This document shows positions 3,014 to 61,863 of a DNA stretch of 64,000 nucleotides, piece after piece (position 1 is the first letter of the stretch; the number at the start of each line of letters is the position of its first letter). The notes under the pieces are model-generated. The model did no database searches and was not told the origin of the DNA. It worked only from the letters and a program-made list of their open reading frames with translations. This DNA is from Polyangiaceae bacterium (GTDB lineage: Bacteria > Myxococcota_A > Polyangia > Polyangiales > Polyangiaceae): assembly GCA_025937895.1 (NCBI GenBank), contig JAICQL010000009.1:6896-70895 (forward strand). The letters run 5' to 3'. The translations under genes and the position numbers were made by a program.

Positions 3014-4285
3014 ATGACCGCTATGCTTCGTTCGCGCGTCCTGGCTGCGAGCCTGCTCAGTCTCGCGTTTCTGGCATTCCAGCAGAGTTGCTCGGCGGGC
3101 GGAAGCTCGTCAGAGGGCGTTGCCGTGACCGGCACCGAGGCAGGGCAAGCGCCCGTGTTGCCACCGCCCACGGGTCAGGGCAGCGGCACCCCCGGCCAGA
3201 ACGGCACGTTCATGCTGGACGACGAGTCGCAGCTGATCGACGAGAACGCGCCGCCACCCAACGTCGGCAGCGAGATGGCTTGCGACGGCATCGACGAGAA
3301 CGGCAACGGGATCATCGATGACGTGGACAAGGGCAGGGACGGCCTGTGCGACTGCCTGAACATCGGCTTCTTCGGCGCGCTCGCCTCCGACAACGGCAAC
3401 TCCACCGGGGCCTTCGAGACGTGGCTGGAGGCGCGCAGTGACGTGCCCGTCACCCACATCGGCGCGCGCGACACCATCACCGCGGACGTGCTGCGGCCGC
3501 TGCAGGTGCTCGTGATCGGCAACCTGCGCGAGCGCGGCAACGCGGGCTTCAGCGCGGCGGAGCTGGAGGCCTTTCGCCAGTGGATCGAGGTCGAGGGTGG
3601 GGGCGTGATGAGCCTGGCGGGCTACACCGCCAATGCCAACGACATGGCACCGACGGTGGCGCTGCTCGCGCCGACGGGCATCAGCTACGACTACCAGGGG
3701 CGCGGCCCCGGTGTGCTGGGGGTGGTGATGAACGGGCCTCCGCCCGTCATCGTCAACGACATCACCGCGCCCGAGCATCCCAGCATGGAGGGCATCAAGG
3801 CGCTCGGTGTCTTCAACGCCTATCCGGTGGTGGGCGACGGTCAGGTAATCGTGCGCTCCGGCGAGTTCAACCTGGCCATGGCCAAGGAGCTGGGCGCGGG
3901 CCACGTGTTTGTCTTCTCCGATGAGTGGATCACGCAGGATGTGCTGTGGTCTCCGATGATGCGCCCGCTCACCCAGTGTCAGCAGAGCTGTAACCAGTGC
4001 GCCAATCAGTGCAGCAACTGCGAGACCAACTGCGCCAACTGCCAGCTGCAGCCCTGCCAGGGTGGCCAGCAGCCGCCGGACGGCGGCACGTGCGCGCGCG
4101 GCTGTGATCAGGCCTGCACGCAGTGCACGAACAATTGCCAGACGTGCGAGGCCGCGTGCGCCGCCTGCAGCGCGCTGGAGCAGGATCAGGAGCTCGACAT
4201 CCCGCGCTTCTGGCTGAACACCTTCCGCTGGCTCACCCCGGCGAACGAGTGTCAGGTGCCGGTGCCCACCACGATCGTCTACTGA
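3014..4285 (+). CDS. Putative lipoprotein with a CDGxDxxGNG metal-binding-like motif, an amidotransferase-like central region and a 16-Cys C-terminal module
   Basis: 423-aa ORF. The signal peptide ends ...AFQQSC (lipobox-like). It contains MACDGIDENGNGIIDDVDKGRDGLCDC. At 3977-4168 there are 16 Cys in 64 aa with alternating x3/x2 spacing. Confidence 0.7.
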   Translation: MTAMLRSRVLAASLLSLAFLAFQQSCSAGGSSSEGVAVTGTEAGQAPVLPPPTGQGSGTPGQNGTFMLDDESQLIDENAPPPNVGSEMACDGIDENGNGIIDDVDKGRDGLCDCLNIGFFGALASDNGNSTGAFETWLEARSDVPVTHIGARDTITADVLRPLQVLVIGNLRERGNAGFSAAELEAFRQWIEVEGGGVMSLAGYTANANDMAPTVALLAPTGISYDYQGRGPGVLGVVMNGPPPVIVNDITAPEHPSMEGIKALGVFNAYPVVGDGQVIVRSGEFNLAMAKELGAGHVFVFSDEWITQDVLWSPMMRPLTQCQQSCNQCANQCSNCETNCANCQLQPCQGGQQPPDGGTCARGCDQACTQCTNNCQTCEAACAACSALEQDQELDIPRFWLNTFRWLTPANECQVPVPTTIVY

Positions 4286-7628: not shown

Positions 7629-8876
7629 TCACGCGGCCGTGCGGCTCGTCCGCGGAGCGCTGGCGAGCCGCTCCAGCACCGTGGCCGCAGCGGCCACCGC
7701 GTCCGTCTCCCGAATCTGGCGCGACAGCTCCGCCAGGGTGCGCCGCGTCTCCAGGCTATCCAGCAAGCGCCGAGCCTGCTTGGCCAGCACATCGCCGGCC
7801 AGGCTCCGGCGCGCCACCACGGCTCCCGCCCCGAGCAGGGTGATGCGATGGCCGTTGTCGGGCTGATCAAACGCCTGCGGGCTGATGATCTGGGGGATGC
7901 CGGCCTCCAGCGCGCGCGCAGTGGTGCCGATGCCGCCGTGGTGCACGAGCAGCGCGGCGTGGGGCAAGAGCCGCTCCAACTCCAGGTATGGCTCGTGGAG
8001 CAGCGCTCCGCCAGCCGGGATGGTGCTGGGGTCAAAACACGGGCTCAGGAAGATGCCGGGCTTCTGCAGCAGCTTGCAGCAGCTGCGAGCGGCGTCGAAA
8101 AACTGCCGCACGTCTGCCACCCCGGTGCCCGGCGTGAACACCAGTGGCGCTCCGCGCTGGCGGATGAACTGCGCCACCCGCTCCGGCAGCTCTCCGCGCG
8201 GGGGCGTCAGCGGAAAGCCCACGCAGTCCAGCGACGCGGGCCAGTCCGACGCGCGCGGGCAGTACCACTCGGGAAACAGGCACAGCTGGTGAGTGACGAG
8301 GCCCTCGAGCACGCGCCAGCTGCCGTTCAGCGGCTGCAGCCCCAGCGTGCTGCGAAACTCGTTCATGCGGCGCAAAATGTACGGGTGCGTGTAGCGGCGC
8401 TCCAGCACTCCCGGCAAGACATGACGGCGGACGTATTTGCCCAGCCAGCCCTTCACCGCCTCGCTCAGCGGATAATACGGCGCCTCCAGTGAGCTGATGC
8501 GGAACGGCGCGAGGGTGAAGCGGACCAGAGGTAGGCCGTGGCGCTCCGCCATCAGGGTGGAGGCGGCGTAGCTCTCCGGGTTGACCAGCACCAGCTCCGT
8601 ACCGCGCGCGAGCTCTCGCTCGATGAAGTCGAACGTGGGCTGGTAGGAGGGGAACACGATGTTGCCGAAGTTCTCCTCCACCTCGACCAGGTTGTTGGTC
8701 TGGGCGGGCGCAATGGCGGTGAAAGGAACGCCCAGCTGCCGCGCCAGGCTCGCGGCGGGAGCGTTGCCCAGCACGTGACAGCTGTGGCCGCGCGCCTGCA
8801 GCTCGGAGGCCATGGCCAGCATCGGCAGCAGATCTCCACGAGTGCCGGTACCACTGAAGACGAACTTGGTGCCCAT
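7629..8876 (-). CDS. GT1-family (UDP-glycosyltransferase/MGT-like) glycosyltransferase
   Basis: 415 aa. The N-terminus reads FSGTGTRGDLLPMLAMASELQARGH. The C-terminal nucleotide-sugar signature is HHGGIGTTARALEAGIPQIISPQAFDQPDNG. Confidence 0.85.
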   Translation of the reverse strand: MGTKFVFSGTGTRGDLLPMLAMASELQARGHSCHVLGNAPAASLARQLGVPFTAIAPAQTNNLVEVEENFGNIVFPSYQPTFDFIERELARGTELVLVNPESYAASTLMAERHGLPLVRFTLAPFRISSLEAPYYPLSEAVKGWLGKYVRRHVLPGVLERRYTHPYILRRMNEFRSTLGLQPLNGSWRVLEGLVTHQLCLFPEWYCPRASDWPASLDCVGFPLTPPRGELPERVAQFIRQRGAPLVFTPGTGVADVRQFFDAARSCCKLLQKPGIFLSPCFDPSTIPAGGALLHEPYLELERLLPHAALLVHHGGIGTTARALEAGIPQIISPQAFDQPDNGHRITLLGAGAVVARRSLAGDVLAKQARRLLDSLETRRTLAELSRQIRETDAVAAAATVLERLASAPRTSRTAA

Positions 8877-8990: not shown

Positions 8991-9034
8991 AACAAATAAA
9001 AAAAGGGCAGCCGCAGCATGCTGCTGCTCTGCCC
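8991..9034 (-). terminator. Rho-independent terminator or attenuator downstream of peptide A
   Basis: On the minus strand, GGGCAGAGCAGCAGCATGCTGCGGCTGCCC forms a stem (with an internal perfect palindrome GCAGCATGCTGC). It is followed directly by TTTTTTTTATTTG. An 8-nt A/T run is exceptional in this GC context. Confidence 0.65.
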
Positions 9035-9121: not shown

Positions 9122-9367
9122 TCAGTAGCCCACGCTGCGAGCGCGGCGCTTGACCTCGCCGAGAAGCATATTGGCAAAGCCATCTGCGATGGCCTTGGCG
9201 CCATCGACGAAGGCACCGCCCACGGCCTTGGCGCCATCGGCGATGGTTTCGCCCACGGCCTTGAACCCGTCGCCGATGGCGTCGACGATGCCGCCCAGAA
9301 AACCGCCCTGAACCGCGCTCAGCTCCGCATCTGAGAGCTCGCGACCGAGGTTGTCAAACTTGCTCAT
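9122..9367 (-). CDS. Double-glycine-leader bacteriocin-like peptide A (81 aa)
   Basis: MSKFDNLGRELSDAELSAVQGG | FLGGIVDAIGDGFKAVGETIADGAKAVGGAFVDGAKAIADGFANMLLGEVKRRARSVGY. The leader is a canonical LSxxELxxVxGG. AGAGGA lies upstream of the ATG. GC3 is high. The core has about 11-aa internal repeats (DGxKAxG). Confidence 0.8.
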   Translation of the reverse strand: MSKFDNLGRELSDAELSAVQGGFLGGIVDAIGDGFKAVGETIADGAKAVGGAFVDGAKAIADGFANMLLGEVKRRARSVGY

Positions 9368-9562
9368 GGTTCGTTCCTCTTTGTGTTGCTTGGTGAATCA
9401 AAAACACGCTGCCGCTGCTGGCGGCCCTGCGACGGCTCATGTCTATGCTCGTCGCCGTGTGCCGAGGTAGTCGGCCGCAGCCGCGCCGGCGTTGCGCGCT
9501 TTTGTCGTCGTTGGATGTGCGTCGCTGCCAGACGTGCGCTTCAGCAGTGCGCCGGAGCGTCT

Positions 9563-9576
9563 GCATCACGTGATGC
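9563..9576. promoter_or_regulatory. Perfect 14-bp palindrome GCATCACGTGATGC in the divergent A/B promoter region
   Basis: Read directly from the sequence. It shares the TGCATC/GATGCA half-site with repeats upstream of peptides C and D. Confidence 0.35.
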
Positions 9577-9702
9577 GACGGCGCTCCGAAATCTGCGGGA
9601 AGCACGAAACCTTTAACCAGCATCAACCGATGGGTGGCGCGTTGGCGCAGTGACGCCAAGTCGCCGGCGCAGTGCCGGCGCTCGTCAGCGAAAGAATCAG
9701 CG

Positions 9703-9867
9703 ATGAAGAACCACGATGCACAGCAGACCGAGTCCGAGCTCTCCGACGACGTGCTCGCGCACGTCACCGGCGGCGCAGCGGGCGTGGCCCAGCCCCAGGG
9801 CCCCATCTTCCCGGGTGTTGACTTCGACTACCCGAAGAAGCCGATCGACCCCCGCGACATTCGCTGA
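9703..9867 (+). CDS. Double-glycine-leader peptide B (54 aa), Pro-rich core
   Basis: This is the internal ATG (M24) of ORF 9634..9867: MKNHDAQQTESELSDDVLAHVTGG | AAGVAQPQGPIFPGVDFDYPKKPIDPRDIR. GC3 is high. Confidence 0.7.
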   Translation: MKNHDAQQTESELSDDVLAHVTGGAAGVAQPQGPIFPGVDFDYPKKPIDPRDIR

Positions 9868-10001
9868 GCTCCGCCGCGGCGCCACAGTAGCACCGTGAAA
9901 TACTGAGGCGCCGAGCTCACCAGCTGTGTCCATGAGGTGCTGATGCAGCGATGATCGTCCGAGTCACCTCCCGACGAAACGGGTTCAATGAACCTTCCAG
10001 G

Positions 10002-10047
10002 CCGGCGGCTGCTCCTCTAGCAGGGGCAGCCGCCGGCGCATTTTGTG
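10002..10047 (+). terminator. Hairpin with short T-tract between peptide B and the downstream genes (terminator or attenuator)
   Basis: An 11-bp perfect stem, CCGGCGGCTGC (10002-10012) paired with GCAGCCGCCGG (10026-10036). It is followed by CGCATTTTGTG. Confidence 0.5.
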
Positions 10048-10196
10048 CTTCTGCGCCGCCGCGGCCGTGAAAGTGCAGAGTGCGCCCGCTTTTGCGCGCG
10101 ACGTCCGGCGGCGATCGAGGCAACATCCCCGTCGAGCACGGCACGGGCAGCGCGGCGCAGGGGCGCGCTTCGATAGTCGCGCTCGAGCGGGGAGCA

Positions 10197-12104
10197 ATGA
10201 GCCACTTATCTAGACTGCGAGTCGTCTTTCATGGACGGTTCCAGGCGGACGTCTCGACCGTGAACAACGACGTTCGTCACTTCGACAATGCAGCGTTCAT
10301 CGACGCCTACCAGGAGCCGCAGGCAGGTGGCTCCCTGAACGGCTGGTGGAATCCGGACGGCACCGGCGCGTTTCGCCTCTCGGATTGCGTGGTAACCGAG
10401 CTGGGGCTGGAGGATGGCAGCGTCGTGCGGGATCCTGGCGTCATCCCGGTCGGCCTGGCCATCACCGATGCCAACGATCGGGTGAGCGGCAAGCTGGTCG
10501 ATCTCGATCCGCAGTGGCAGATGGCGTCCGCGATCTGGGGGCTCACGGTCCGGCTGGTGGCTGAAGACGGCACGGAGCTGCTGTCGGGGCGCTTCGAAGC
10601 CGCGCCATTTCGAGATCTCGCCTTCGGTCGCGCACCGGCTCCCGGCTCGGGCGGTGCGAGCGCCTGCTTCACCTCGGTGCTGAGCGAGCTCGTCTGGGCA
10701 CCGGAGCTGAGGAATCGGGCCCCGATCCTCGATCGGCTGCGGCAGAGCACGGCCGATGGCGTGCTGGCGATCCGCCTGATGACGTACGCCTATGCAGGCA
10801 GCTCGTCACGGCCCGGGTTCACCTTCGGCAGGATCAGCGGCATCATCGGACCTCAGGATCGCCTGCGCCCGCGCTCCTTCGTGCTGGGTCGTCGCCTCGT
10901 GCCGTCGCCTCAGACCATCGGCAGCGGGACCGCGAATTTCTGCGATGCCGTCATCGCCGCTGGCGGCGACGGCATCTTGTTCGATCTGGGCAACGCCGTG
11001 CCGCTCGATGCCAGCTTCGTGCCGGTCGACATGGGGCCACTGCAAGTCGTGGCGCTGGCCGATGATAGCGTGGCTCCGGGCGGGCCCGTGTCAGCGCAGC
11101 AGTACACTGCCATCGGCACCATCGAGGGCTACGCGAACGAAGGGTTCTTGACCCGCTCGGGCGGGATTGTCGACGTACGCGCAGCCATCCCCGCGATGGC
11201 CACTGTGCGCTCGCGGCCTATCGCCATCCTGATGGGAGAGGGCTCGGCCACGACGGTCGTGTGGCGCGAGACGAAGGAGGGCCGCCTGGTGCGAGCCGAG
11301 CAGTTCGTGCAGCGCCCGTACCCCGGGGACGTGGTGCGCGATCGATTGTGGGCGGCCCAGTGGGGAGAGCCGTTGCCGGGGGCGCAGCTCGCCTTGCAGC
11401 TGCTGCCGCCCGTTGCGGGCCTCGGCGGCAGTGGCCGGCCCACGCCAGACGTGCCGATTCCGCGCATCAATCAGCCGGCGAGCTCGCTCACCGTGCCGCA
11501 GACGGTGGTGACCAACGGCAATGGTTATGCGGAGCTCGCCATCCAGACCCGGGACCCGGAGTCACCCCGTGGCTACGTGGATGGCCAGATCTATCTGATC
11601 AGCTACAACTTCCCCGGCGAGCAGGCCATCGAGCAACCTTCCGTCGGGCTACCGCTCGATTGCTACGCGCTCCTGCTGTTCAGCGCGTTTCAGCCGAAGC
11701 ACGACCCGCCCAGCTGGGCTGACGATATCGCGCCCATCCTGCAGCAATATGCCAATCTCTACCCGATCATGAGCCGCTCGTTGTTCGATCTGGGCGACGA
11801 GAGTGCCGTAGCGCTGCACCAGAAGCTGCTGACGTTCGCCTTCGGGCTGCCCATGGACCACCCCAATCACATGCCCGTCACCCGCGATCTTTCACCCAGG
11901 AAGCGCGACGCCATTCTCACCTACCTCGCCAGCGTGAAGCCCCAGCCGGCGGCCATCGTCGCCGAGTTGCGCCCGGCCGCGGCGCATCGCAAGTCGGCAA
12001 GCTTGCTGAATGCCGGCGCCTCCGCGGAGACGGATGGCAAGCAGGCCTTCGCCGCATCGATCGCGGCTGCGCTCGAGGCCACTGCTCGGGAGACCACGCC
12101 ATGA
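10197..12104 (+). CDS. 635-aa protein of unknown function, no transmembrane segment or recognisable motif
   Basis: This is the internal ATG (M40) of ORF 10080..12104, preceded by GAGCGGGGAGCA. Codon 4 is TTA (10206-10208). The stop overlaps the next start (ATGA at 12101-12104). Confidence 0.8.
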   Translation: MSHLSRLRVVFHGRFQADVSTVNNDVRHFDNAAFIDAYQEPQAGGSLNGWWNPDGTGAFRLSDCVVTELGLEDGSVVRDPGVIPVGLAITDANDRVSGKLVDLDPQWQMASAIWGLTVRLVAEDGTELLSGRFEAAPFRDLAFGRAPAPGSGGASACFTSVLSELVWAPELRNRAPILDRLRQSTADGVLAIRLMTYAYAGSSSRPGFTFGRISGIIGPQDRLRPRSFVLGRRLVPSPQTIGSGTANFCDAVIAAGGDGILFDLGNAVPLDASFVPVDMGPLQVVALADDSVAPGGPVSAQQYTAIGTIEGYANEGFLTRSGGIVDVRAAIPAMATVRSRPIAILMGEGSATTVVWRETKEGRLVRAEQFVQRPYPGDVVRDRLWAAQWGEPLPGAQLALQLLPPVAGLGGSGRPTPDVPIPRINQPASSLTVPQTVVTNGNGYAELAIQTRDPESPRGYVDGQIYLISYNFPGEQAIEQPSVGLPLDCYALLLFSAFQPKHDPPSWADDIAPILQQYANLYPIMSRSLFDLGDESAVALHQKLLTFAFGLPMDHPNHMPVTRDLSPRKRDAILTYLASVKPQPAAIVAELRPAAAHRKSASLLNAGASAETDGKQAFAASIAAALEATARETTP

Positions 12105-13156
12105 ATGCGCTGCGCATGCCGGTCCGTCACGTACGAGCGGTGCGTGACGGAGACGTTGCGGAGCTGCGGGAGGCCTTGCAGAAGGCCATCGAGCTCGAGC
12201 ACGCTACCATCCCCACCTATCTCTACTCGCTGTTCAGCGTTGAGCTGGGCACGAACATCGAGGCCGCCGGCATCGTACGCTCGGTCGTCATCGAGGAGAT
12301 GTTGCACATGGCCATCGCGGCCAACGTGCTGAACGCCATCGGCGGCACGCCCATCATCGACAAGCCCGGCTTCATCCCCACCTATCCTGGGCCCGTGCCG
12401 CTCGACATCGATGGCCTGGTCGTGCACCTGCGCAAGCTGTCGCGGCAGCAGGTCGAGGACACGTTCCGCGCCATCGAGATGCCGGAGGATCCGCGCGATA
12501 TTCCCGTCGAGAGGCTGGCCGCGCCGGCAGCCGCCAAGATCGCTCAGACGTACGCGACCATCGGCCAGTTCTACCAGGCCATCATGGACAAGCTCCGAGA
12601 GCTGGGGGACGACATCTTCACCGGCGAGCCCGCGCGGCAGGTCACCAGTGAGCGATGGTTCGCCGAGGAGCTGGTCGCGGTCACGGGCCCGGAGGTCGCC
12701 TGCCAGCAGCTCCGGCTGATCGTGACCCAGGGCGAGGGCCCCATGGGCGGGCAGATCCCCGTGGAGCAGGGGCGAGCCGCACACTACTACCGGTTCGGCG
12801 AGATCGTTTACGGCGGGCGGCTCGTGGTCAAAGCCGACGGCAGCTACGTCTATGACACCAGCCAGCCCGTGACCCTCGACATGGACCACGTCTACGACTT
12901 GCTCGAAGACGCGCGGCTCTCCGACTACCCGGAGGGCACCAATGTCCGCCAGCTCGCCGAAGAGTGCAACCTCGCCTACAGCAACCTGCTGCGAGCGCTC
13001 CACCTCGCCTTCAACGGCCGTCCTGCACAGCTCGATGCCGCGATCGGCCTGATGTACGAGCTACGGCTGCTGTGCTCCCGCCTGGTTCAGATGGAGGCGC
13101 CAGGCCGCGGCGGCAAGCGCGCCGCGCCACCGTTCTCGTATATGTCTCACGACTGA
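12101..13156 (+). CDS. Ferritin-like protein with two E-x-x-H motifs
   Basis: 351 aa. The two E-x-x-H motifs are in helix-like contexts: KAIELEHATIPTYLYSLFS and VVIEEMLHMAIAANVLNAIGG. It is translationally coupled to the upstream gene. Confidence 0.85.
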   Translation: MNALRMPVRHVRAVRDGDVAELREALQKAIELEHATIPTYLYSLFSVELGTNIEAAGIVRSVVIEEMLHMAIAANVLNAIGGTPIIDKPGFIPTYPGPVPLDIDGLVVHLRKLSRQQVEDTFRAIEMPEDPRDIPVERLAAPAAAKIAQTYATIGQFYQAIMDKLRELGDDIFTGEPARQVTSERWFAEELVAVTGPEVACQQLRLIVTQGEGPMGGQIPVEQGRAAHYYRFGEIVYGGRLVVKADGSYVYDTSQPVTLDMDHVYDLLEDARLSDYPEGTNVRQLAEECNLAYSNLLRALHLAFNGRPAQLDAAIGLMYELRLLCSRLVQMEAPGRGGKRAAPPFSYMSHD

Positions 13157-13448
13157 CGCCGGGCGCACCGGCAGCTCGCCAGCGGCGTACCCGCTGGCGG
13201 CGCACCACTGGCGGCATTTCGTATCTTCAGTACGCAACCACTCGTCACGAGCGGACGACACGGGGGGAGGCGAGGGGGGCGGCTTCGTGGCGAAGGCCTC
13301 GGAGCGGTGCTGGGCATGCTCTGCGGTGCAGAAAGCTGGAGAGCGCTGGCCTCCCAGGCGAGGGCACGCCATGCCCAGGGGGGCGGCAGGCGTTGAGCTT
13401 TGGCTGGCAGCAGCGGCGGTATCGCTGAACCCTCAACGATCCCGCCAG

Positions 13449-13531
13449 TAGCCCCTGCCGGGGTCGAACCGGCACGCCTGTTAGGGCGAGGGATTTTAAA
13501 TCCCCTGCGTCTGCCATTCCGCCAAGGGGCC
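13449..13531 (-). tRNA. tRNA-Leu, anticodon UAA
   Basis: The minus strand reads GGCCCCUUGGCGGAAUGGCAGACGCAGGGGAUUUAAAAUCCCUCGCCCUAACAGGCGUGCCGGUUCGACCCCGGCAGGGGCUA. It has an anticodon loop UUUAAAA, a long variable arm, a GUUCGAC T-loop and an A73 discriminator. CCA is not encoded. It closely resembles E. coli tRNA-Leu(UAA). Confidence 0.85.
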
Positions 13532-13680
13532 AGAGCGCAGCACTATCCCAGCGTTGGCGGCGAGTCCAGCGCCTGCAGGCGGCTGCGCTGCAGCCCCGGG
13601 CCCGGGAGATTCCGCTTGCCTTTGCGCGGCAGCCCGAGCGCGTGCGGGCAGGGTGGGCGCGGCGGAAGCCGCCAGTGCGC

Positions 13681-13710
13681 CGGCGTCTCGCGGCGTCTCG
13701 CGGCGTCTCG
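13681..13710. repeat. Perfect tandem repeat, 3 x 10 bp (CGGCGTCTCG)
   Basis: Read directly. It lies in the 454-bp region between tRNA-Leu and peptide C. Confidence 0.9.
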
Positions 13711-13740
13711 GGCGTGGGCCGCACTGTGTCGCAGACGCGC

Positions 13741-13782
13741 GCGACGGGCTGCATGCTCGGCGCGACGCGCTGCATGCTCGGC
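13741..13782. repeat. Tandem repeat, 2 x 21 bp (GCGACGSGCTGCATGCTCGGC)
   Basis: Read directly. There is one mismatch between the copies. Confidence 0.9.
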
Positions 13783-13985
13783 GACAGTGAAGCGAGCGAG
13801 CGCCCTGCACCGCTGGTAGGAGTTCTGTGCAGCGCGCTGTTCGCGGCGCGCTGGACGGCGCGGCTCGCCGCCTGCCAGGGGAGCTGTTGCATCGTGTTTT
13901 TGCGCAACTCCAGCGAGCGATGGCCCGACTGGAGTCGTACATGGGCGGCAATGGAGTTCGCCCGCCAACGAGGAAGAACGATCAC

Positions 13986-14213
13986 ATGAACAACAACGAA
14001 TTTGTGGGCGTGGAGCTGTCGGATGCAGAGCTGGCGTCGGTCCAGGGTGGCGGTTTCTTCGGCGACGTGTGGGACGGCATCAAGAAGGGCGCCAACTGGG
14101 TGAAGAACGCGGCGAAGGACGCCTACGAGTGGGCCACGGGCGATGGCAAGGGCATCGTGAGCGCGGGCGTGGCCATCGGCACTGCGATCTTCGCGATCGA
14201 GCGCAAGTACTGA
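13986..14213 (+). CDS. Double-glycine-leader bacteriocin-like peptide C (75 aa)
   Basis: This is the internal ATG (M54) of ORF 13827..14213, with AGGAAG upstream: MNNNEFVGVELSDAELASVQGG | GFFGDVWDGIKKGANWVKNAAKDAYEWATGDGKGIVSAGVAIGTAIFAIERKY. It is a paralog of peptide D. Confidence 0.8.
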   Translation: MNNNEFVGVELSDAELASVQGGGFFGDVWDGIKKGANWVKNAAKDAYEWATGDGKGIVSAGVAIGTAIFAIERKY

Positions 14214-14552
14214 AGACGAACCCCGAACGAGGGACACTGCTCCAGTGCGAGCTGGAGCTCGAAAAACCCATCGCTGGTGGCGAACCATCAATGAAATACG
14301 GCACGGAACAGTCGCCCCTCTCGAGCAGGGGCGGCTGTTGCCTCGGGCCAGCAGCGTGGTGAAGCACAGGGCTCGAGCGGGTAGCTCGAGCACGTGGCCC
14401 GACCATGGTGAGCAGCAGGACGAAGCCCCCGTGATTGCCTGAATGTGGCGATCATCGTGGGGCTTTGGAGCGTTTGTCATTCCGCGGTGTCGCCGCCGTG
14501 TCTCCGGCACTCGGTGGTGGCGCGAGTGGTGATGCGCGATGCGCGGGCTCTG

Positions 14553-14605
14553 GTGTTGCATCGCCATCTGGAGCGCGGGCAATGATGCAATGCTAGATGC
14601 AACAC
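14553..14605. promoter_or_regulatory. 10-bp perfect inverted repeat GTGTTGCATC...GATGCAACAC upstream of peptide D
   Basis: The arms are at 14553-14562 and 14596-14605. An extra GATGCAAT half-site lies between them. The element ends 79 bp upstream of the peptide D ATG. Confidence 0.35.
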
Positions 14606-14683
14606 GAAACTGGATCGCTCGCTGCGCCGATAGGCCCGTACCTGGCGGCACTGGGTCGCCGGCGAACGAGGAAGAAGAGCACA

Positions 14684-14938
14684 ATGAGCAACAACAACGG
14701 CTTTGAGCAGGTGGGGATCGAGTTGTCTGAGTCCGAGCTGGCGCTGATCCATGGCGGCGGCTTCTTCGGCGATGTCTGGGATGGCATCAAGAAGGGCGCA
14801 AACTGGGTGAAGAATGCCGCGGAGGACGCCTACGATTGGGCCACGAGCGACACCGGCAAGAAGGTGCTCACCGGCGCAGCCGTGGTGATCGGTGCCATCT
14901 TCGGCGGCAGCTCGGGCAGCAAGAAGAGCAGCTACTGA
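14684..14938 (+). CDS. Double-glycine-leader bacteriocin-like peptide D (84 aa)
   Basis: This is the internal ATG (M30) of ORF 14597..14938, with AGGAAGAAG upstream: MSNNNGFEQVGIELSESELALIHGG | GFFGDVWDGIKKGANWVKNAAEDAYDWATSDTGKKVLTGAAVVIGAIFGGSSGSKKSSY. Confidence 0.8.
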   Translation: MSNNNGFEQVGIELSESELALIHGGGFFGDVWDGIKKGANWVKNAAEDAYDWATSDTGKKVLTGAAVVIGAIFGGSSGSKKSSY

Positions 14939-15090
14939 GCGCCGTCTGGCTCGGCACGAGTCGGCATACCGCTGCGCGGCACAGGCATCCATGTCGCGAC
15001 CCGGCCATTACCTTGGGGCAAGACAGTCGCCCTCCTGGTTCGCACGTTTTCGCCGGTGCGCTCTTCTCTGGAGCGCACCAGCGCTTCGCG

Positions 15091-15170
15091 CAGCGGGGCG
15101 CGGCTGTCACGCGATAGGATAAACAGCGGTGCGGCTGTCACGCGACGGGGAAACAGCGGGTGGCTGCCAC
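15091..15170. repeat. Roughly 31-bp tandem repeat, about 2.5 copies (CAGCGGnGCGGCTGTCACGCGAnnGGnAAA)
   Basis: Read directly. It lies about 130 nt beyond the 3' end of tRNA-Cys. Confidence 0.7.
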
Positions 15171-15302: not shown

Positions 15303-15377
15303 TGGAGGCGAGGACCGGATTCGAACCGGCGTATGGCGGTTTTGCAAACCGCTGCCTAACCACTTGGCTACCTCGCC
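15303..15377 (-). tRNA. tRNA-Cys, anticodon GCA
   Basis: The minus strand reads GGCGAGGUAGCCAAGUGGUUAGGCAGCGGUUUGCAAAACCGCCAUACGCCGGUUCGAAUCCGGUCCUCGCCUCCA. It folds as a cloverleaf, has a GCA anticodon, and encodes CCA. Confidence 0.9.
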
Positions 15378-34188: not shown

Positions 34189-34427
34189 TGTGAGCGCAGC
34201 GATCTGTGCGCTGGTGCTTGACGGAATGCGCGCGATGAATATCTTTGCGCGCTCTGGATGATGTGATCGAATCGCGTGCGGCGTTGATTCGATCTTCGTT
34301 GGCGTTATCTTTCAATGGCTCTATCTAAAAGGCGTTGGAAGAGCGCGCTGGTACCCGCGCTGCGCTCCGCAGCAAGCGGCAGGAGACTCGAGGGCGAGTG
34401 ACTCAGAAATTCGAATGGCGTAGCTCG

Positions 34428-34856
34428 ATGAGCTTGCGCACGACGCCGGCCGGAAAAGGCCTCTTTGCGCGGAAAACGTTTCGCAAGCGTCAGGCCATCG
34501 GCCACATGAGGGGCCGGCTCATCACGAGCGATGACTACGATCCCGACTATGTCGTGGATATGGGGGAGCTGGGGGTGCTCGATCCCCAGGCGCCGTTCCG
34601 CTACTTGAACCATAGCTGCGAGCCGAACTGTGAGCTGCTGGAGTGGCAAACGCCGGACATGAGCACGCCTCAGATCTGGGTGCATGCCATCCGCACGGTG
34701 CGGCCGAGCGAACAGCTGACGATCGACTATGGCTGGCCCGCGGAGTCCGCCATCCCCTGCCTGTGTGGGAGCCCGACCTGCCGCGGCTGGGTCGTCGATC
34801 AATCGGAGCTCGCGCGCGTGCGGCGGCGCAAGGCGCGAGCGCCTCGTCGCAGCTGA
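34428..34856 (+). CDS. SET-domain protein (putative protein lysine methyltransferase)
   Basis: GKGLFARKTFRKRQAI...RYLNHSCEPNCEL...LTIDYG...CLCGSPTCRG (post-SET Cys motif). Confidence 0.8.
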   Translation: MSLRTTPAGKGLFARKTFRKRQAIGHMRGRLITSDDYDPDYVVDMGELGVLDPQAPFRYLNHSCEPNCELLEWQTPDMSTPQIWVHAIRTVRPSEQLTIDYGWPAESAIPCLCGSPTCRGWVVDQSELARVRRRKARAPRRS

Positions 34857-46070: not shown

Positions 46071-46940
46071 TCAGGCGCCGGACGCCAGCCCCGGCTCCGT
46101 CCCCGGCACGACATCCACGATCCAACCATTCTTGGCCCACGCCTGGAACCAGCTCGCGACATTCTGCTGCAATCGTTCGGCGTGTTCGGGGTGGAGCTGA
46201 AGCGCATGTTCACACGCGCTCACCAGAGAAGTACGGCGCGAGAGCGCAGAAAGTAGCGCGAAGGCCTCGGGGCTCACCGGTCGGTGGTAGAGCCTGCGAT
46301 CCGCTGCGCGATACAGCACGAGCTGCTGCGCCTGGGGCGCAGGCAGCTCAACACCCGGACCGGCGCCGCCATTCCTGCGCGACTCGAGCAGCTGCCGCCG
46401 CAGATCGGCGACGGGATAGCTGACCTCCAGCAGGCGCAGCGCGGGATTGAGGAGGATTTGCCCCGATTCGAGCAGCTCGGGCCGCTGTGCGGCGAGCTTG
46501 GCGAGATCCAGGGGCGGGCAGTCGGCCGCGTCAAAGAGCTCGATGAACGCCCACTCCAGTCGGGCCATGTCGCTGCACAGGCGCTGGTGGGGGAGGTCGG
46601 TACAGCCCGCGATGTATTCGGGGAAGCTGCGGCCCAGCTCGCGCAGGGTCCAGCTCGTGGGCGTGTGCGCCTGCAGGTAGCCCTCCATCAGGCGTTCCCA
46701 GTCGCTCTGGCCCAGGATGCCGCCGACCCCCGGAAAATCCTCCACCAGCGACGCGGTGTGGCGCAGCCAGAATTGCTCGCGATAGATCTCCAGCTGCTCC
46801 ACGGGCAGCAGGCGATCATTGCCCGTGAGTCGGTCGGCTGCCTCTGCGCTGAGGGTGGGATCGCGCGGCAGCGCACGCAGCGCCTGCAGGTTACGAGCCA
46901 CCCAGTGTTGCAGTGTGCTCAGCTCGCTCTGGTACGTCAC
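46071..46940 (-). CDS. DUF2063-family protein (HvfC/BufC-like RiPP maturation partner)
   Basis: 289 aa: ...LPVEQLEIYREQFWLRHTASLVEDFPGVGGILGQSDWERLMEGYLQAHTP... Its ATG overlaps the stop of the upstream DUF692 gene. Confidence 0.8.
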   Translation of the reverse strand: MTYQSELSTLQHWVARNLQALRALPRDPTLSAEAADRLTGNDRLLPVEQLEIYREQFWLRHTASLVEDFPGVGGILGQSDWERLMEGYLQAHTPTSWTLRELGRSFPEYIAGCTDLPHQRLCSDMARLEWAFIELFDAADCPPLDLAKLAAQRPELLESGQILLNPALRLLEVSYPVADLRRQLLESRRNGGAGPGVELPAPQAQQLVLYRAADRRLYHRPVSPEAFALLSALSRRTSLVSACEHALQLHPEHAERLQQNVASWFQAWAKNGWIVDVVPGTEPGLASGA

Positions 46941-47905
46941 TCTGCTACCGCCGCTCCCAGGCTGCTGCTCTCCCGTGCCGCCAGCTCGCGCGGGCCGCCA
47001 TGGCTGGCAGAATGTGCCGCCTGGCGCTCGCCCGCCGCCGCGGAGCGCGCCGGCAATGGCGCGGGCACGCGGCCGAGCGCCACGTCGCGCGCGTGACGGG
47101 CTTTTTCAGCCTCGGCGGCCAGCACGGGCCACTCGGGGATCTCGTCGTCCCACTCGATCAAGGTGGAGACGGAGCCCGTGTAGCGGATGGTCTCTGCGTA
47201 CAGCGCCCACACCGCGTCCACCACATGGCCGCGGTGCGTGTCGATGATGTACTTGCCGACGTTGGTGTGCCCGGCGAGATGGATCTGCACGATGCGCTCG
47301 TGCGGTATGGAGCGGATGAACTCGTGCGGATCGAAGCCGTGGTTGTAGGCGGACACGTACACGTTGTTCACGTCGAACATCAGCCCGATGTTCGCACGCT
47401 CCGCCACCTCGGAGATGAACTGCCACTCGCTCATCTGGCTGCAGCTGTAGGTCATGTAGCTGGAGGTATTTTCCAGCGCGAACGGGACCTCCAGGTAGTC
47501 CTGCACGCGGCGCGCCCGCTCCGCCACGCGCTCCACCGCCTCCCACGTATAGGGCAGTGGCAGCAGATCGTGCAGGTGTGCGCCCGGCACCCCGCACCAG
47601 CAGAAGTGATCGCTGAGCCAGGCCGGCTGGACCCGCCGCACCAGTTGCTTGAGCCGCGCCAGGTAAGCCGGGTCCGGCTCTTCCGGGCCGCCGATGCTGA
47701 GCGAGACGCCGTGCTGGATGAGCGGATAGTGCTGCTGCACCTGCTCCAGGTGGTGCACTGGCTTGCCCCCATCGACCATGAAGTTTTCGCTGATGATCTC
47801 GAAGAAATCCATGGCGGGGCGCTGGCTGAGGATGTGCCGGTAGTGCGGCACGCGCAGGCCCACGCCGATCCCGAGATCCGGGACACCGAGCCGGGGTTGG
47901 GTCAC
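46937..47905 (-). CDS. DUF692 / MNIO-family (MbnB/BufB-like multinuclear non-heme iron oxidase)
   Basis: GTG 47905 is preceded by AGTGAGG: VTQPRLGVPDLGIGVGLRVPHYRHIL...FFEIISENFM...HGVSLSIG...LSDHFCW...ALENTSSYM...QIHLAGH... The longer track ORF (to 48289) is antisense to pepP. Confidence 0.85.
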   Translation of the reverse strand: MTQPRLGVPDLGIGVGLRVPHYRHILSQRPAMDFFEIISENFMVDGGKPVHHLEQVQQHYPLIQHGVSLSIGGPEEPDPAYLARLKQLVRRVQPAWLSDHFCWCGVPGAHLHDLLPLPYTWEAVERVAERARRVQDYLEVPFALENTSSYMTYSCSQMSEWQFISEVAERANIGLMFDVNNVYVSAYNHGFDPHEFIRSIPHERIVQIHLAGHTNVGKYIIDTHRGHVVDAVWALYAETIRYTGSVSTLIEWDDEIPEWPVLAAEAEKARHARDVALGRVPAPLPARSAAAGERQAAHSASHGGPRELAARESSSLGAAVAE

Positions 47906-47960
47906 AGCCTCACTATCCCAGATTGTGTGGCAAATTGTGGTCGTGAATTCACCGGAGCCC

Positions 47961-49340
47961 ATGCCTGGCCGCTGGCCCACGAGCACCCCTGGCCCCGCGC
48001 TGGCGGCGCGGCGGCGGCGCTTGCGCGAGCAACTGCAAGGCCCCGCGCTGCTCGCCGCGGGCTGGCCGCGGCCGCGGAATTTCCCCCACAATTGCCACCC
48101 GTTTCGCGCGGAGAGCCACTTTCTGTACCTGGTGGGCAGGCAGCTGCCGGGCGCGGCGCTGTGGCTCGAGCCCGGCGCCGAGCGGCTGTATGCACCGCCG
48201 CCCGAGCCCGAGGCGCGCCTGTGGCACGGACCCGAGCCGAGCCTGGCGGAGCTGGAGGCCGAGCTGGGCCTGGAGGTGAGGCCGATCACGGAGCTGCCCC
48301 GCGCCGAGACGGCGGCGACGTTGCCGCCTCAGGACCCGACCGCTGCCGAGTGGCTGTCAGGGCAGCTCGGGCGCGTGGTGAAGGCGTCAGCGCTGCCCAG
48401 CGAGAGCGCTGACGTGGCGCTGGCCGAAGCGCTCATCGCGCTGCGCCTCATTCATGATGACGCGGCGCTCGCGCAGCTTCGACAGGCCGCGCTGGTGACC
48501 TGTGACGCTCACCGGGCGGGGTTGCGCGCCACTCGACCCGGGCTGCGCGAGGCACAGGTGCGAGCCCAGATGGAGGCCACCATCGTGGGAGCGGGCATGA
48601 CGCTCGCGTATTGGCCGATCGTGACCGCCGACGGCCACATCCTGCACGCGCAGCGGCACGACGGTGTGCTCGCGCCCGGTGACCTGTTGCTGGCAGACGT
48701 GGGCGCGGAGACGCCCGAGGGCTGGGCCGCCGACGTGACCCGCACCTGGCCCGTGTCGGGGCGCTTCAGCCCGACGCAGCGCGCTGCGTACCAGGCTGTG
48801 CACACGGCGCAGGCGGCGGCGCTCGCGGCAGTGCGCCCAGGTGCTCGCTACACGGACGTGCACCGCGCCTCACAGCGCGCGCTGCTCCAGTGCCTGCTCG
48901 ATCTGAAGCTGCTGCGCGGCTCGCTGGAGGAGCTGCTCGTCTGTCACGCGGTGGCGCTCTTCTATCCGCACGGGGTCGGCCACCTCCTGGGGCTCGACGT
49001 GCACGACATGGAGGATCTCGGCGACCGCGCCGGCTACGCCCCGGGCCGTGCCCGGCAGCAGAACCCGAGCGCCCGCTATCTGCGGCTCGATCGCGAGCTG
49101 CAACCCGGCATGGTCGTGACCATCGAGCCCGGCTTCTACCAGCTGCCCGAGCTGCTCGCGGCGATCGAGCCCGGCAGCGCGCTCGATCGCGCTCTCGATC
49201 GCGAGCAGCTCGCGCGCTTCGCCGACGTGAAGGGCATCCGCATCGAGGATGACGTGCTGGTCACCGATGCCGGCCACGAGATCCTGACCGCCGCGCTCCC
49301 GAGCGAGGTGGATGCGGTGGAGAGCGCGATGAGGGGCTGA
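47961..49340 (+). CDS. pepP: Xaa-Pro aminopeptidase (M24B)
   Basis: GGAG lies upstream of ATG 47961. N-domain: NCHPFRAESHFLYLVG. Catalytic residues: ...LLADVGAE...HGVGHLLGLDVHD...TIEPG...IRIEDDV. Confidence 0.85.
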   Translation: MPGRWPTSTPGPALAARRRRLREQLQGPALLAAGWPRPRNFPHNCHPFRAESHFLYLVGRQLPGAALWLEPGAERLYAPPPEPEARLWHGPEPSLAELEAELGLEVRPITELPRAETAATLPPQDPTAAEWLSGQLGRVVKASALPSESADVALAEALIALRLIHDDAALAQLRQAALVTCDAHRAGLRATRPGLREAQVRAQMEATIVGAGMTLAYWPIVTADGHILHAQRHDGVLAPGDLLLADVGAETPEGWAADVTRTWPVSGRFSPTQRAAYQAVHTAQAAALAAVRPGARYTDVHRASQRALLQCLLDLKLLRGSLEELLVCHAVALFYPHGVGHLLGLDVHDMEDLGDRAGYAPGRARQQNPSARYLRLDRELQPGMVVTIEPGFYQLPELLAAIEPGSALDRALDREQLARFADVKGIRIEDDVLVTDAGHEILTAALPSEVDAVESAMRG

Positions 49341-61618: not shown

Positions 61619-61863
61619 GGAAAATCAACGAAGGGAAGTCAGCTCAGCGCAGGGAAAAGTACAGAGCAGCGAGGGCGCTGCCCGCTGGCCGCCCCCGCTA
61701 GCCCCTCGGGGGGGTTCCGTGTATTGTTGCACGGTCCGGTTTCTTTCCGTTGAGACCGTGTGCGGTGGGCCAATGGCATGGGTCGCCACTGCACTTCGCT
61801 CGGCTGAGCCGGTTATTGCCCTTTTATCTCGCTCGTCTGGCAGCGACCACTTTGCAGAAGATC

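Follow-up and report, generated by a model that had tools for sequence, protein, structure and literature searches.

Four double-glycine-leader peptide genes without a neighboring exporter in a Polyangiaceae bacterium, and a possible link of two of them to a membrane-breaching module of viruses and toxins

We analyzed a 64,000-nucleotide stretch of DNA from a Polyangiaceae bacterium (contig JAICQL010000009.1; hereafter the window), in which four small genes, here called A, B, C, and D, encode precursor peptides with a bacteriocin-type double-glycine (GG) leader. Our preferred reading, which we consider probable, is that A-D are exported, unmodified peptides, membrane-active in the case of C and D, and that they are served by a peptidase-containing ATP-binding cassette (ABC) transporter (PCAT), an HlyD adaptor, and an outer-membrane component encoded elsewhere; the exporter would lie outside the window, since none was found in the 64 kb. 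A, B, and C/D are three new GG-leader peptide families not represented by any Pfam or NCBIfam model, and billions of predicted proteins contain only a handful of their relatives. The finding of GG peptides is ordinary in kind, and the unexpected part is a lytic module in the C and D cores that recurs across kingdoms.

The precursor of peptide A (9122-9367, minus strand) has 81 amino acids (aa), made up of the 22-aa GG leader MSKFDNLGRELSDAELSAVQGG and a 59-aa core, and that of peptide B (9703-9867, plus strand) has 54 aa, with the 24-aa GG leader MKNHDAQQTESELSDDVLAHVTGG and a 30-aa core. The precursors of C (13986-14213, plus strand; 75 aa) and D (14684-14938, plus strand; 84 aa) carry GG leaders of 22 and 25 aa followed by cores of 53 and 59 aa, respectively. 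A first-pass annotation of this DNA had listed four small open reading frames (ORFs) of 81, 54, 75, and 84 aa, and we recovered the same coordinates and lengths; the leader sequences LSDAELSAVQGG, LSDDVLAHVTGG, LSDAELASVQGG, and LSESELALIHGG (A to D) are identical to the ones that it quoted. The high third-position GC content that it had reported was reproduced as 0.78-0.87 (0.78 for A), and the Shine-Dalgarno-like purine tracts were found again as ribosome-binding sites before each ATG (AAAGAGGAA for A, GAGGAAGAA for C, GAGGAAGAAGAG for D, and a weaker GAAAGAA for B). A six-frame translation of the window contains four matches to the pattern LS[DE]..L..[IV].GG, each inside one of the ORFs A-D, compared with a mean of 0.0 in 100 simulated first-order Markov windows of 64 kb. 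These leader-pattern statistics exclude a chance origin, and A-D are real genes. A scan of the window with a relaxed pattern revealed no further GG-leader ORFs. Comparison with the orthologous locus L005 of a diverged relative showed that the short starts MNNNEF... and MSNNNGF... are set by 1-nt indels just upstream of the ATGs.

C39 peptidase domains bind a two-turn leader helix whose residues -4, -7, and -12 face a hydrophobic groove (PMC6363468). The consensus for ComA, as given in the same paper from Ishii 2010 and from the LahT150 co-crystal, is Leu-12-X3-Glu-8-Leu-7 together with a GG, GA, or GS site. The leaders of A, C, and D match every recognition position (Leu-12, Glu-8, Leu-7, Val/Ile-4, GG), whereas the B leader matches all hydrophobic positions (Leu-12, Leu-7, Val-4) with Val instead of Glu at -8. 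All four leaders end in GG, and their lengths fall within the ~15-30 aa expected for GG leaders, so that the window peptides resemble in this respect the GG-leader class II bacteriocins and microcins such as those of the lactococcin G type. Residues 17-22 of the D leader are helical in an AlphaFold2 model of low confidence (pLDDT 56). A profile of the family gave a weak leader match to CtA, the substrate of PCAT1 (E 0.29). Class IIb bacteriocin models scored below their cutoffs (15.9-18.2 bits against 37 for NF038034/NF038035 and 13.8 against 21.5 for TIGR03949), with matches that start at the leader and reach at most ~15 residues into the core, and the lactococcin G-type, cerein, lichenicidin, and mersacidin models gave leader-only matches far under their cutoffs. 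Membership in class IIb is thus not supported, because the class IIb matches cover the leader only.

One scan of GTDB genomes identified a locus in Martelella mediterranea (L007) with a C/D-family homologue whose sequence reads EELQVVAGG↓GVFGDVWDGIKTG... (the arrow here and below marks the predicted cleavage site). The gene order at this locus is an A-like GG peptide with an Asp/Gly/Ala-repeat core, the C/D-like GG peptide, HlyD_3, a PCAT, and a second ABC transporter of 946 aa. The 741-aa PCAT combines Peptidase_C39, ABC_membrane, and ABC_tran domains (E 2e-34, 1e-30, and 7e-29, respectively), and its catalytic Q..C..H residues are intact. As a whole, positions 5993-16920 of contig52 of strain IOP_24, with GG peptides at 8546-8866 and ~9771-10151, form a complete candidate bacteriocin-type locus. 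Based on this arrangement, the C/D family is PCAT-linked where the locus is complete. The encoding of homologues beside HlyD and PCAT genes is a further likeness of the window peptides to class II bacteriocins and microcins. The leader residues, the Martelella PCAT linkage, and purifying selection on C and D agree with the double-glycine, bacteriocin-type reading proposed in the first-pass annotation.

The C-D tandem also occurs in the relative that carries locus L005, which comes from Logan assembly SRR18593715. Coding differences between L005 and the window are mainly synonymous (dN/dS 0.35 for C and 0.29 for D, at dS ~0.5), and the intergenic DNA around the two genes has diverged with many indels; this pattern indicates that C and D are under purifying selection. 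The first-pass annotation had named lack of conservation in relatives as evidence against its reading; C and D have these orthologues, and homologues of A and B were found as well. C and D themselves are paralogues with 65% identity. A, B, and D are already called proteins in public collections, and near-identical copies are present in several metagenome assemblies, including ENA and Logan metagenomes for A; identical copies of D are found in two Logan assemblies. A strain-level copy of B differs by two synonymous and no non-synonymous changes. A homologue 59% identical to A (P0154) comes from SRR18593715, the same sample as L005. An exhaustive phmmer search for B returned three small homologous proteins; all have the MKN.DAQQ leader together with PQGP[IVL]F in the core, and two of them retain PG..F.Y. 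The search with the C/D family gave 12 matches among 5.8 billion sequences, and the GG-leader forms besides C and D of the window are P0021-P0025 and P0027. No Pfam, NCBIfam, or PHROGs family matched any of A-D above threshold. The window and SRR18593715 each contain both A-type and C/D-type peptides, and in Martelella the C/D homologue has an A-like peptide beside it; since A or A-like peptides accompany the C/D types in a second and a third organism, A probably belongs to the same secreted set.

The cores of C and D begin after the GG with GFFGDVWDGIKKGANWVKNAA(K/E)DAY(E/D)W, continue with a GD(G/T)GK hinge, and end in a hydrophobic small-xxx-small stretch. In C, the N-terminal Trp-rich amphipathic segment is GFFGDVWDGIKKGANWVKNAAKDAYEW and the hinge is GDGKG. 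The hydrophobic moment of the two cores is 0.59-0.63 (0.63 for C), and the Kyte-Doolittle mean of the hydrophobic stretch is ~1.75 (1.78 across the C-terminal 17 residues of C). The 59-aa core of A is a Gly/Ala/Asp-rich amphipathic repeat (DG.KA.G) with a maximal hydrophobic moment of 0.55, and the 30-aa core of B is Pro-rich and contains PQGPIFPGVDFDY. These features bear out the core descriptions in the first-pass annotation, which had further sorted the cores into three unrelated types. The sorting holds for B, which is a separate Pro-rich GG peptide. It does not hold for A, which aligns with the C/D family profile (96.4% probability and E 1e-9 in hhalign) over 60 columns that comprise the leader and the first part of the core and, judging from this alignment, is distantly related to C and D.

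Under the export reading, each precursor would be recognized through Leu-12, Leu-7, and Val/Ile-4 of its leader helix, the C39 domain of an ABC exporter of the PCAT type would cut it after the GG, and the core would be secreted through an ABC/HlyD/outer-membrane channel. The unmodified products would have 59 residues in A and D, 53 in C, and 30 in B, with predicted masses of about 5872 Da (A), 3266 Da (B), 5621 Da (C), and 6088 Da (D). In C and D, cleavage would expose GFFGDVWDGIKKGANWVK, the predicted mature N-terminus, as the start of a Trp-containing amphipathic helix that is followed by the hinge and a small-xxx-small hydrophobic helix; both peptides would then insert the Trp-rich N-terminus and the glycine-zipper-like helix into target membranes. 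The analysis itself shows that the genes are real, that the leaders have the described features, that the window lacks an exporter, that a homologous locus is PCAT-linked, and how the module is distributed; cleavage, export, membrane activity, and target are inferred. Binding and permeabilization of target-cell membranes is the most likely activity of C and D, because their module is homologous to viral, Rhs toxin, and tape-measure segments.

The first 18-25 core residues of C and D recur in very different proteins. Small basic proteins encoded on AT-rich, virus-like contigs contain MQGE↓GFFGDVWNGIKKGANWIK, IYGG↓GFFGDVWDGIKSG, or LSGG↓SFFGDLWNGVKS, and one of them adjoins genes for a Pox_A32-type packaging ATPase and a collagen/beta-helix fibre. 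A virophage major capsid protein of the Sputnik type has the module in its C-terminal extension, starting ~13 residues past the end of the alignment with the mature V20 chain. In the Rhs toxin of the actinobacterium Streptacidiphilus sp. N1-1, the module stands directly after DPSGH and ahead of PT-HINT, and phage tape-measure proteins identified with PHROGs (on L011, L015, and L033) contain GFFGD[VL]W[DN]GIK internally. The profile of the bacterial GG peptides and that of the viral class aligned over 25 columns, the cleavage site among them, with a probability of 98.7% (E 2.5e-16). Searched against the Protein Data Bank, the viral-class profile had adenovirus pre-protein VI as its best match (E 0.0023), in register with MSGG↓AFSWGSLWSGIKNFGSTVKN, and three further protein VI chains were among its five listed matches, with other E-values of 0.074 and 0.087. 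The best match of a mixed bacterial and viral-class profile was nicomicin-1 (E 0.0057).

The small viral proteins (P0026, P0028, P0029, and P0030; L001, 1262-1543; L009; L022-L027; L037) are ~70-110 aa long. Their common layout is MPKKKK..., a helix of the form (M/I/L)xG(G/E)↓GFFGDVW, a stretch of moderate hydrophobicity, VGLGK(R/K), and a G-G site at the C-terminus, and no Pfam, NCBIfam, or PHROGs family matched them above threshold. The virophage (Sputnik V20-like) capsid proteins (L012, 1679-3502; L028; L029, 4576-6396) carry ...AMYGS↓SFFGDLWNGIKSGV..., a basic GLGRKKKR tail, and further G-G sites, and their extension resembles a fusion of a protein VI-like lytic peptide to the capsid protein. 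Born et al. (PMC6048507) showed cleavage of the C-terminal domain of the mavirus capsid protein at GG↓X sites and predicted that its first fragment contains an amphipathic helix for rupturing the endosome. Candidate ORFs for a maturation protease on the virophage-like contigs gave no match in Pfam or in a Protein Data Bank sequence search, so that adenain-type processing on these contigs is suggested by the site consensus and by Born et al. (2018). A limited literature look-up found no description of a protein VI counterpart in polinton-like viruses or virophages, and a full-text literature search returned no papers for the motif strings and nothing specific on myxobacterial GG peptides. The Rhs module (L008, NZ_JBHEZX010000007.1, ~10001-10240) consists of the GFFGDVWNGIKKGASWV segment followed by Gly-rich hydrophobic segments, PT-HINT, and the C-terminal tip. 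On a further contig from an uncultured bacterium (L010, 7920-10064; 34% GC), a 714-aa protein has the GFFGDVWDGIK motif upstream of a Peptidase_C39_2/C70-like papain-fold domain, an odd joining of the module to a C39-like protease.

We tentatively propose, at somewhat below an even chance, that hydrophobic-x-G-G↓GFFGDxWxGIK, a cleavage site joined to a Trp-rich amphipathic helix, constitutes one mobile membrane-breaching cassette, and that it has been exchanged among bacterial GG-leader peptides, Rhs toxins, tape-measure proteins of phages, and those virophage and polinton-like-virus entry proteins that resemble adenovirus protein VI. C and D would then be free-standing bacterial relatives of the protein VI lytic peptide, released at the same position by unrelated cysteine proteases (the C39 domains of PCATs and adenain-type enzymes). 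As in adenovirus protein VI and mavirus MCPC1, a cysteine protease would cut at a hydrophobic-x-G-G↓x site and leave an amphipathic Trp/Phe-rich helix as the new N-terminus, which for C and D is a prediction; the corresponding motif is GFFGDVWDGIKKG in C and D, SFFGDLWNGIKSG in the virophage capsid protein, and AFSWGSLWSGIKNF in protein VI. As far as the account in PMC6048507 goes, which cites Wiethoff 2005, a membrane-rupturing role of the protein VI and mavirus helices is proposed or established. Unlike protein VI, the window peptides are encoded on a bacterial chromosome, carry a PCAT-type leader, and are not virion proteins cut by a clan CE protease. Pfam scans of the window detected no capsid, packaging, or protease genes, and the DNA is bacterial chromosome with recA, rplM, rpsI, and uvrB. 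Its DUF4215 and DUF4388 domains, a Ser/Thr kinase, and a GC content of ~69% are compatible with a Myxococcota-like origin.

Other holders of similar segments differ from C and D in their setting. Residues 4-75 of C match the Rhs toxin segment GFFGDVWNGIKKGASWV...AVEAYDWTSSKV after DPSGH with 37% identity, but that module is a linker or pre-toxin segment before PT-HINT and the toxin tip in a protein of >3000 aa. The periodic Trp/Phe amphipathic repeats of tape-measure proteins (TMP repeat, PF05017) resemble the A and C/D cores, whereas tape-measure proteins are structural proteins of 500-1100 aa; the PF05017 model scored C below threshold (10.5 bits against a gathering threshold of 15), on WDGIKKGA only. 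The N-terminal GFWSSVWDGAKNVGTAIIKNAK of nicomicin-1, an antimicrobial peptide of polychaetes (PDB 6hn9), aligns with GFFGDVWDGIKKGANWVKNAAK (E 0.0057 and 0.053). In micelles, nicomicin-1 folds into an amphipathic helix, and its killing action is through membrane damage (PMC6265681). Unlike C and D, it is an animal peptide cut from a BRICHOS precursor and has a C-terminal disulfide loop, and the similarity may be convergent.

Among bacterial systems, one close likeness is to class II bacteriocins and microcins, with which the window peptides share Gly/Ala-rich cores of 30-59 aa that are predicted to be unmodified and, in C and D, an amphipathic segment plus a small-xxx-small helix. Colicin V, exported by CvaAB-TolC, is a class II microcin that leaves the cell through a PCAT/HlyD system. 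Class IIb bacteriocins are complementary alpha/beta pairs in one operon with a downstream immunity gene, whereas C and D are paralogues (65% identity) that are transcribed separately, with 470 nt and a hairpin terminator between them; this intergenic DNA is non-coding and divergent in the relative. The precursor genes of the prochlorosins are scattered around the genome. For Prochlorococcus MIT9313, as many as 30 prochlorosins and a promiscuous C39 domain are reported (PMC6363468). The prochlorosins thus resemble the window peptides in that many GG-leader precursors are served by one processing and export system, and they provide a precedent for detachment of precursors from the exporter. Unlike prochlorosins, which are lanthipeptides modified by ProcM, the window peptides have no implicated modification enzyme.

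Several results weigh against the reading of A-D as exported peptides with membrane-active C and D. The first-pass annotation had seen neither an exporter nor an immunity gene, and our searches came to the same result: no PCAT, HlyD, or immunity gene lies within the 64 kb. Specifically, no ABC transporter, C39 peptidase, or HlyD was detected in the window (Pfam on ~50 ORFs; LSGGQ/Walker-A scan), and a hydropathy scan of 6.5-19 kb found no small multi-transmembrane ORF with coding-like composition; the absence of the exporter refers to the 64-kb window, not the genome. It is unusual for the gene of a toxic peptide to have no immunity gene next to it. The net charge of the mature peptides is near zero (+0.8 for C and D, -0.2 for A and B), unlike that of many pore-forming bacteriocins. 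In the lack of exporter and immunity genes, in their charge, and in their high-GC, Myxococcota-like Gram-negative host, the window peptides depart from class II bacteriocins. The curated NCBIfam model of GG leaders, TIGR01847 (bacteriocin_sig; 15 positions), on which the first-pass annotation had proposed to check the leaders, narrowly missed A and C (13.2 and 13.8 bits against a cutoff of 15.7) and gave no match to B or D. The AlphaFold2 model of D, with helices at 17-22, 27-54, and 56-77, has low confidence (pLDDT 56). Finally, the bacterial family searched directly against protein VI was not significant (E 1.7), so that the protein VI link is transitive and concerns a module of ~25 residues.

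ComC/BlpC-type GG-leader peptides are pheromones. It is conceivable, but in our view unlikely, that A-D are likewise exported by the GG-leader route and are non-toxic signalling, developmental, or matrix peptides. The lack of a nearby immunity gene would be simpler to understand if the products were harmless, and their near-neutral net charge fits such a role. There is also a precedent, in that non-antibiotic GG-motif small proteins, EbfG, which enable biofilm formation, are documented in a cyanobacterium, a Gram-negative phototroph (PMC4997328). A 7TMR-DISM histidine kinase is encoded just upstream of the Martelella peptides, and a response regulator with HD-GYP and DUF4388 domains lies ~1.3 kb downstream in the window. 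However, no peptide gene in the window has a dedicated sensor kinase as its partner, each of these genes forms a separate transcription unit, and the C/D module is common to membrane-breaching proteins (tape-measure, protein VI-like, Rhs toxin, nicomicin).

All four genes have a strong hairpin of their own downstream, and A-D are therefore regarded as four separate transcription units outside the operons of their neighbors. The intrinsic terminator of A (8998-9034, minus strand; hairpin and U7; -21.5 kcal/mol, z -3.15) lies between A and a gene for a GT1/EryCIII-like glycosyltransferase. A hairpin with a 16-bp stem followed by GCAUUUUGUGCUU terminates B (10001-10048, plus strand; -39.9 kcal/mol, z -6.45) before the gene for a 635-aa protein. 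Terminator-like hairpins follow C (14300-14342, plus strand; -27.9 kcal/mol, z -4.52), where the stem is kept in L005 and the loop differs, and D (15051-15083, plus strand; -26.7 kcal/mol, z -3.32). The motif (C/G)TGTTGCATCG occurs ~100 nt upstream of C (13884-13894, plus strand) and twice upstream of D (14553-14563, plus strand; 14595-14605, minus strand), and it is conserved in L005. Only three matches to GTGTTGCATCG with at most one mismatch exist in the 64 kb, all upstream of C and D, and (C/G)TGTTGCATCG is a candidate promoter or operator element shared by the two genes. Non-coding tandem repeats flank C and D at 13681-13783 and 15100-15170 (a 10-mer x3.6, CGGCGTCTCG; a 21-mer x2.1; a 31-mer x2.4); these repeats and the GTGTTGCATCG motif may be regulatory sites. 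A sigma-54 promoter upstream of C and D was ruled out by the GG-to-GC spacing, and a sigma-70 scan gave no relevant promoter.

The gene order across the region is recA, the glycosyltransferase gene, A, B, the 635-aa gene, a Ferritin-like (PF12902) gene, tRNA-Leu, C, D, and tRNA-Cys, and to the right of D follow the response regulator gene (HD-GYP and DUF4388), rplM, rpsI, and uvrB. This order raises the possibility, which we consider quite improbable, that A-D are precursors of peptides synthesized by ribosomes and modified after translation (RiPPs) acted on by the glycosyltransferase near A or by the 635-aa/Ferritin-like pair near B. The glycosyltransferase gene lies 245 nt downstream of A on the same strand, an arrangement repeated in a close relative; B is upstream of the 635-aa and Ferritin-like genes, again on the same strand; and an MbnB/DUF692 and DUF2063 gene pair is present at 46-48 kb in the window. 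Against this, strong terminators part A and B from the enzyme genes, and the adjacency of A and the glycosyltransferase gene is not independent evidence, since it is known at strain-level divergence only. The cores of A-D have no Cys, and that of A has two Ser/Thr and no recognizable modification motif. The only genes with which the peptides are grouped in Martelella are export genes. Conservation of the 635-aa/Ferritin-like pair extends to cyanobacteria, myxobacteria, and a relative with 80% identity, without an upstream GG peptide. Two specific forms of the RiPP proposal were rejected on these grounds: a B/635-aa/Ferritin-like operon, because the pair is conserved without a GG peptide and B has its own terminator, and a glycocin-like modification of A by the GT1 enzyme, which has no independent support given the intervening terminator and the strain-level synteny.

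The gene pair itself (10197-13156, plus strand) encodes a 635-aa protein with no Pfam domain, translationally coupled through an ATGA overlap to a 351-aa Ferritin-like (PF12902) protein. A search with the pair gave 370 matches over threshold, with E-values down to ~1e-113 among the 120 matches listed, and it occurs in Nostoc, Microcoleus, Myxococcaceae, Kofleriaceae, Azospirillum, Photobacterium, Geodermatophilus, and others. None of three loci inspected, including that of the 80%-identical relative, has a GG peptide upstream of the pair. Because the pair is conserved in other lineages without such a peptide, it is unrelated to A-D; it is an uncharacterized, widespread two-gene module.

That A-D are decaying remnants of a bacteriocin island that lost its exporter, or chance ORFs in high-GC DNA, is very improbable: the missing exporter and immunity genes, the position of C and D between two tRNA genes, and the resolvase and tRNA-like fragment near an A homologue would suit an island in flux, but the frames of C and D are intact in two lineages with dN/dS ~0.3 at dS ~0.5, the ribosome-binding sites, upstream motif, and terminator stems are conserved, and the leader-pattern statistics exclude chance ORFs. 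The genes flanking C and D are tRNA-Leu(TAA) on the left (13448-13531, minus strand) and tRNA-Cys(GCA) on the right (15303-15377, minus strand), both called by ARAGORN and Rfam, and they may mark an island insertion site for C and D. At locus L040 of a relative, the A homologue is near a serine recombinase (resolvase) gene (476-1054) and a tRNA-like fragment (~3130-3200), the latter not called as a tRNA by ARAGORN. These observations hint at small mobile islands that insert at tRNA genes and carry the peptide genes.

Taken as exported peptides, A-D enlarge the little-studied secreted-peptide repertoire of predatory, myxobacteria-like bacteria, and their cores of 30-59 aa are concrete candidates for synthesis and testing, with the Martelella locus as a possible experimental stand-in for the orphan peptides of the window. 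Since GG-leader precursors can be detached from their exporter, genome mining that relies on co-localization would miss them. The C/D core connects bacteriocin-like peptides with a short membrane-active module of phage tails, Rhs toxins, and virophage and adenovirus-like entry machinery; if common descent were true, C and D would provide a simple bacterial system for the protein VI-type lytic helix and a hint at its origin.

Three further features of the window lie away from the peptide genes. At 46071-48289 (minus strand), an MbnB/TglH/ChrH gene (DUF692, E 2e-107) is followed by a gene for a partner similar to DUF2063/NGO1945; such a pair is the hallmark of a RiPP-modifying system of the multinuclear non-heme iron type, and the 600 nt upstream showed no obvious precursor ORF. 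A bacterial SET-domain protein is encoded at 34335-34856 (plus strand), and a large protein with at least six DUF4215 Cys-rich repeats at 61750-63999 (plus strand) continues past the end of the window; both are unrelated to the peptides.

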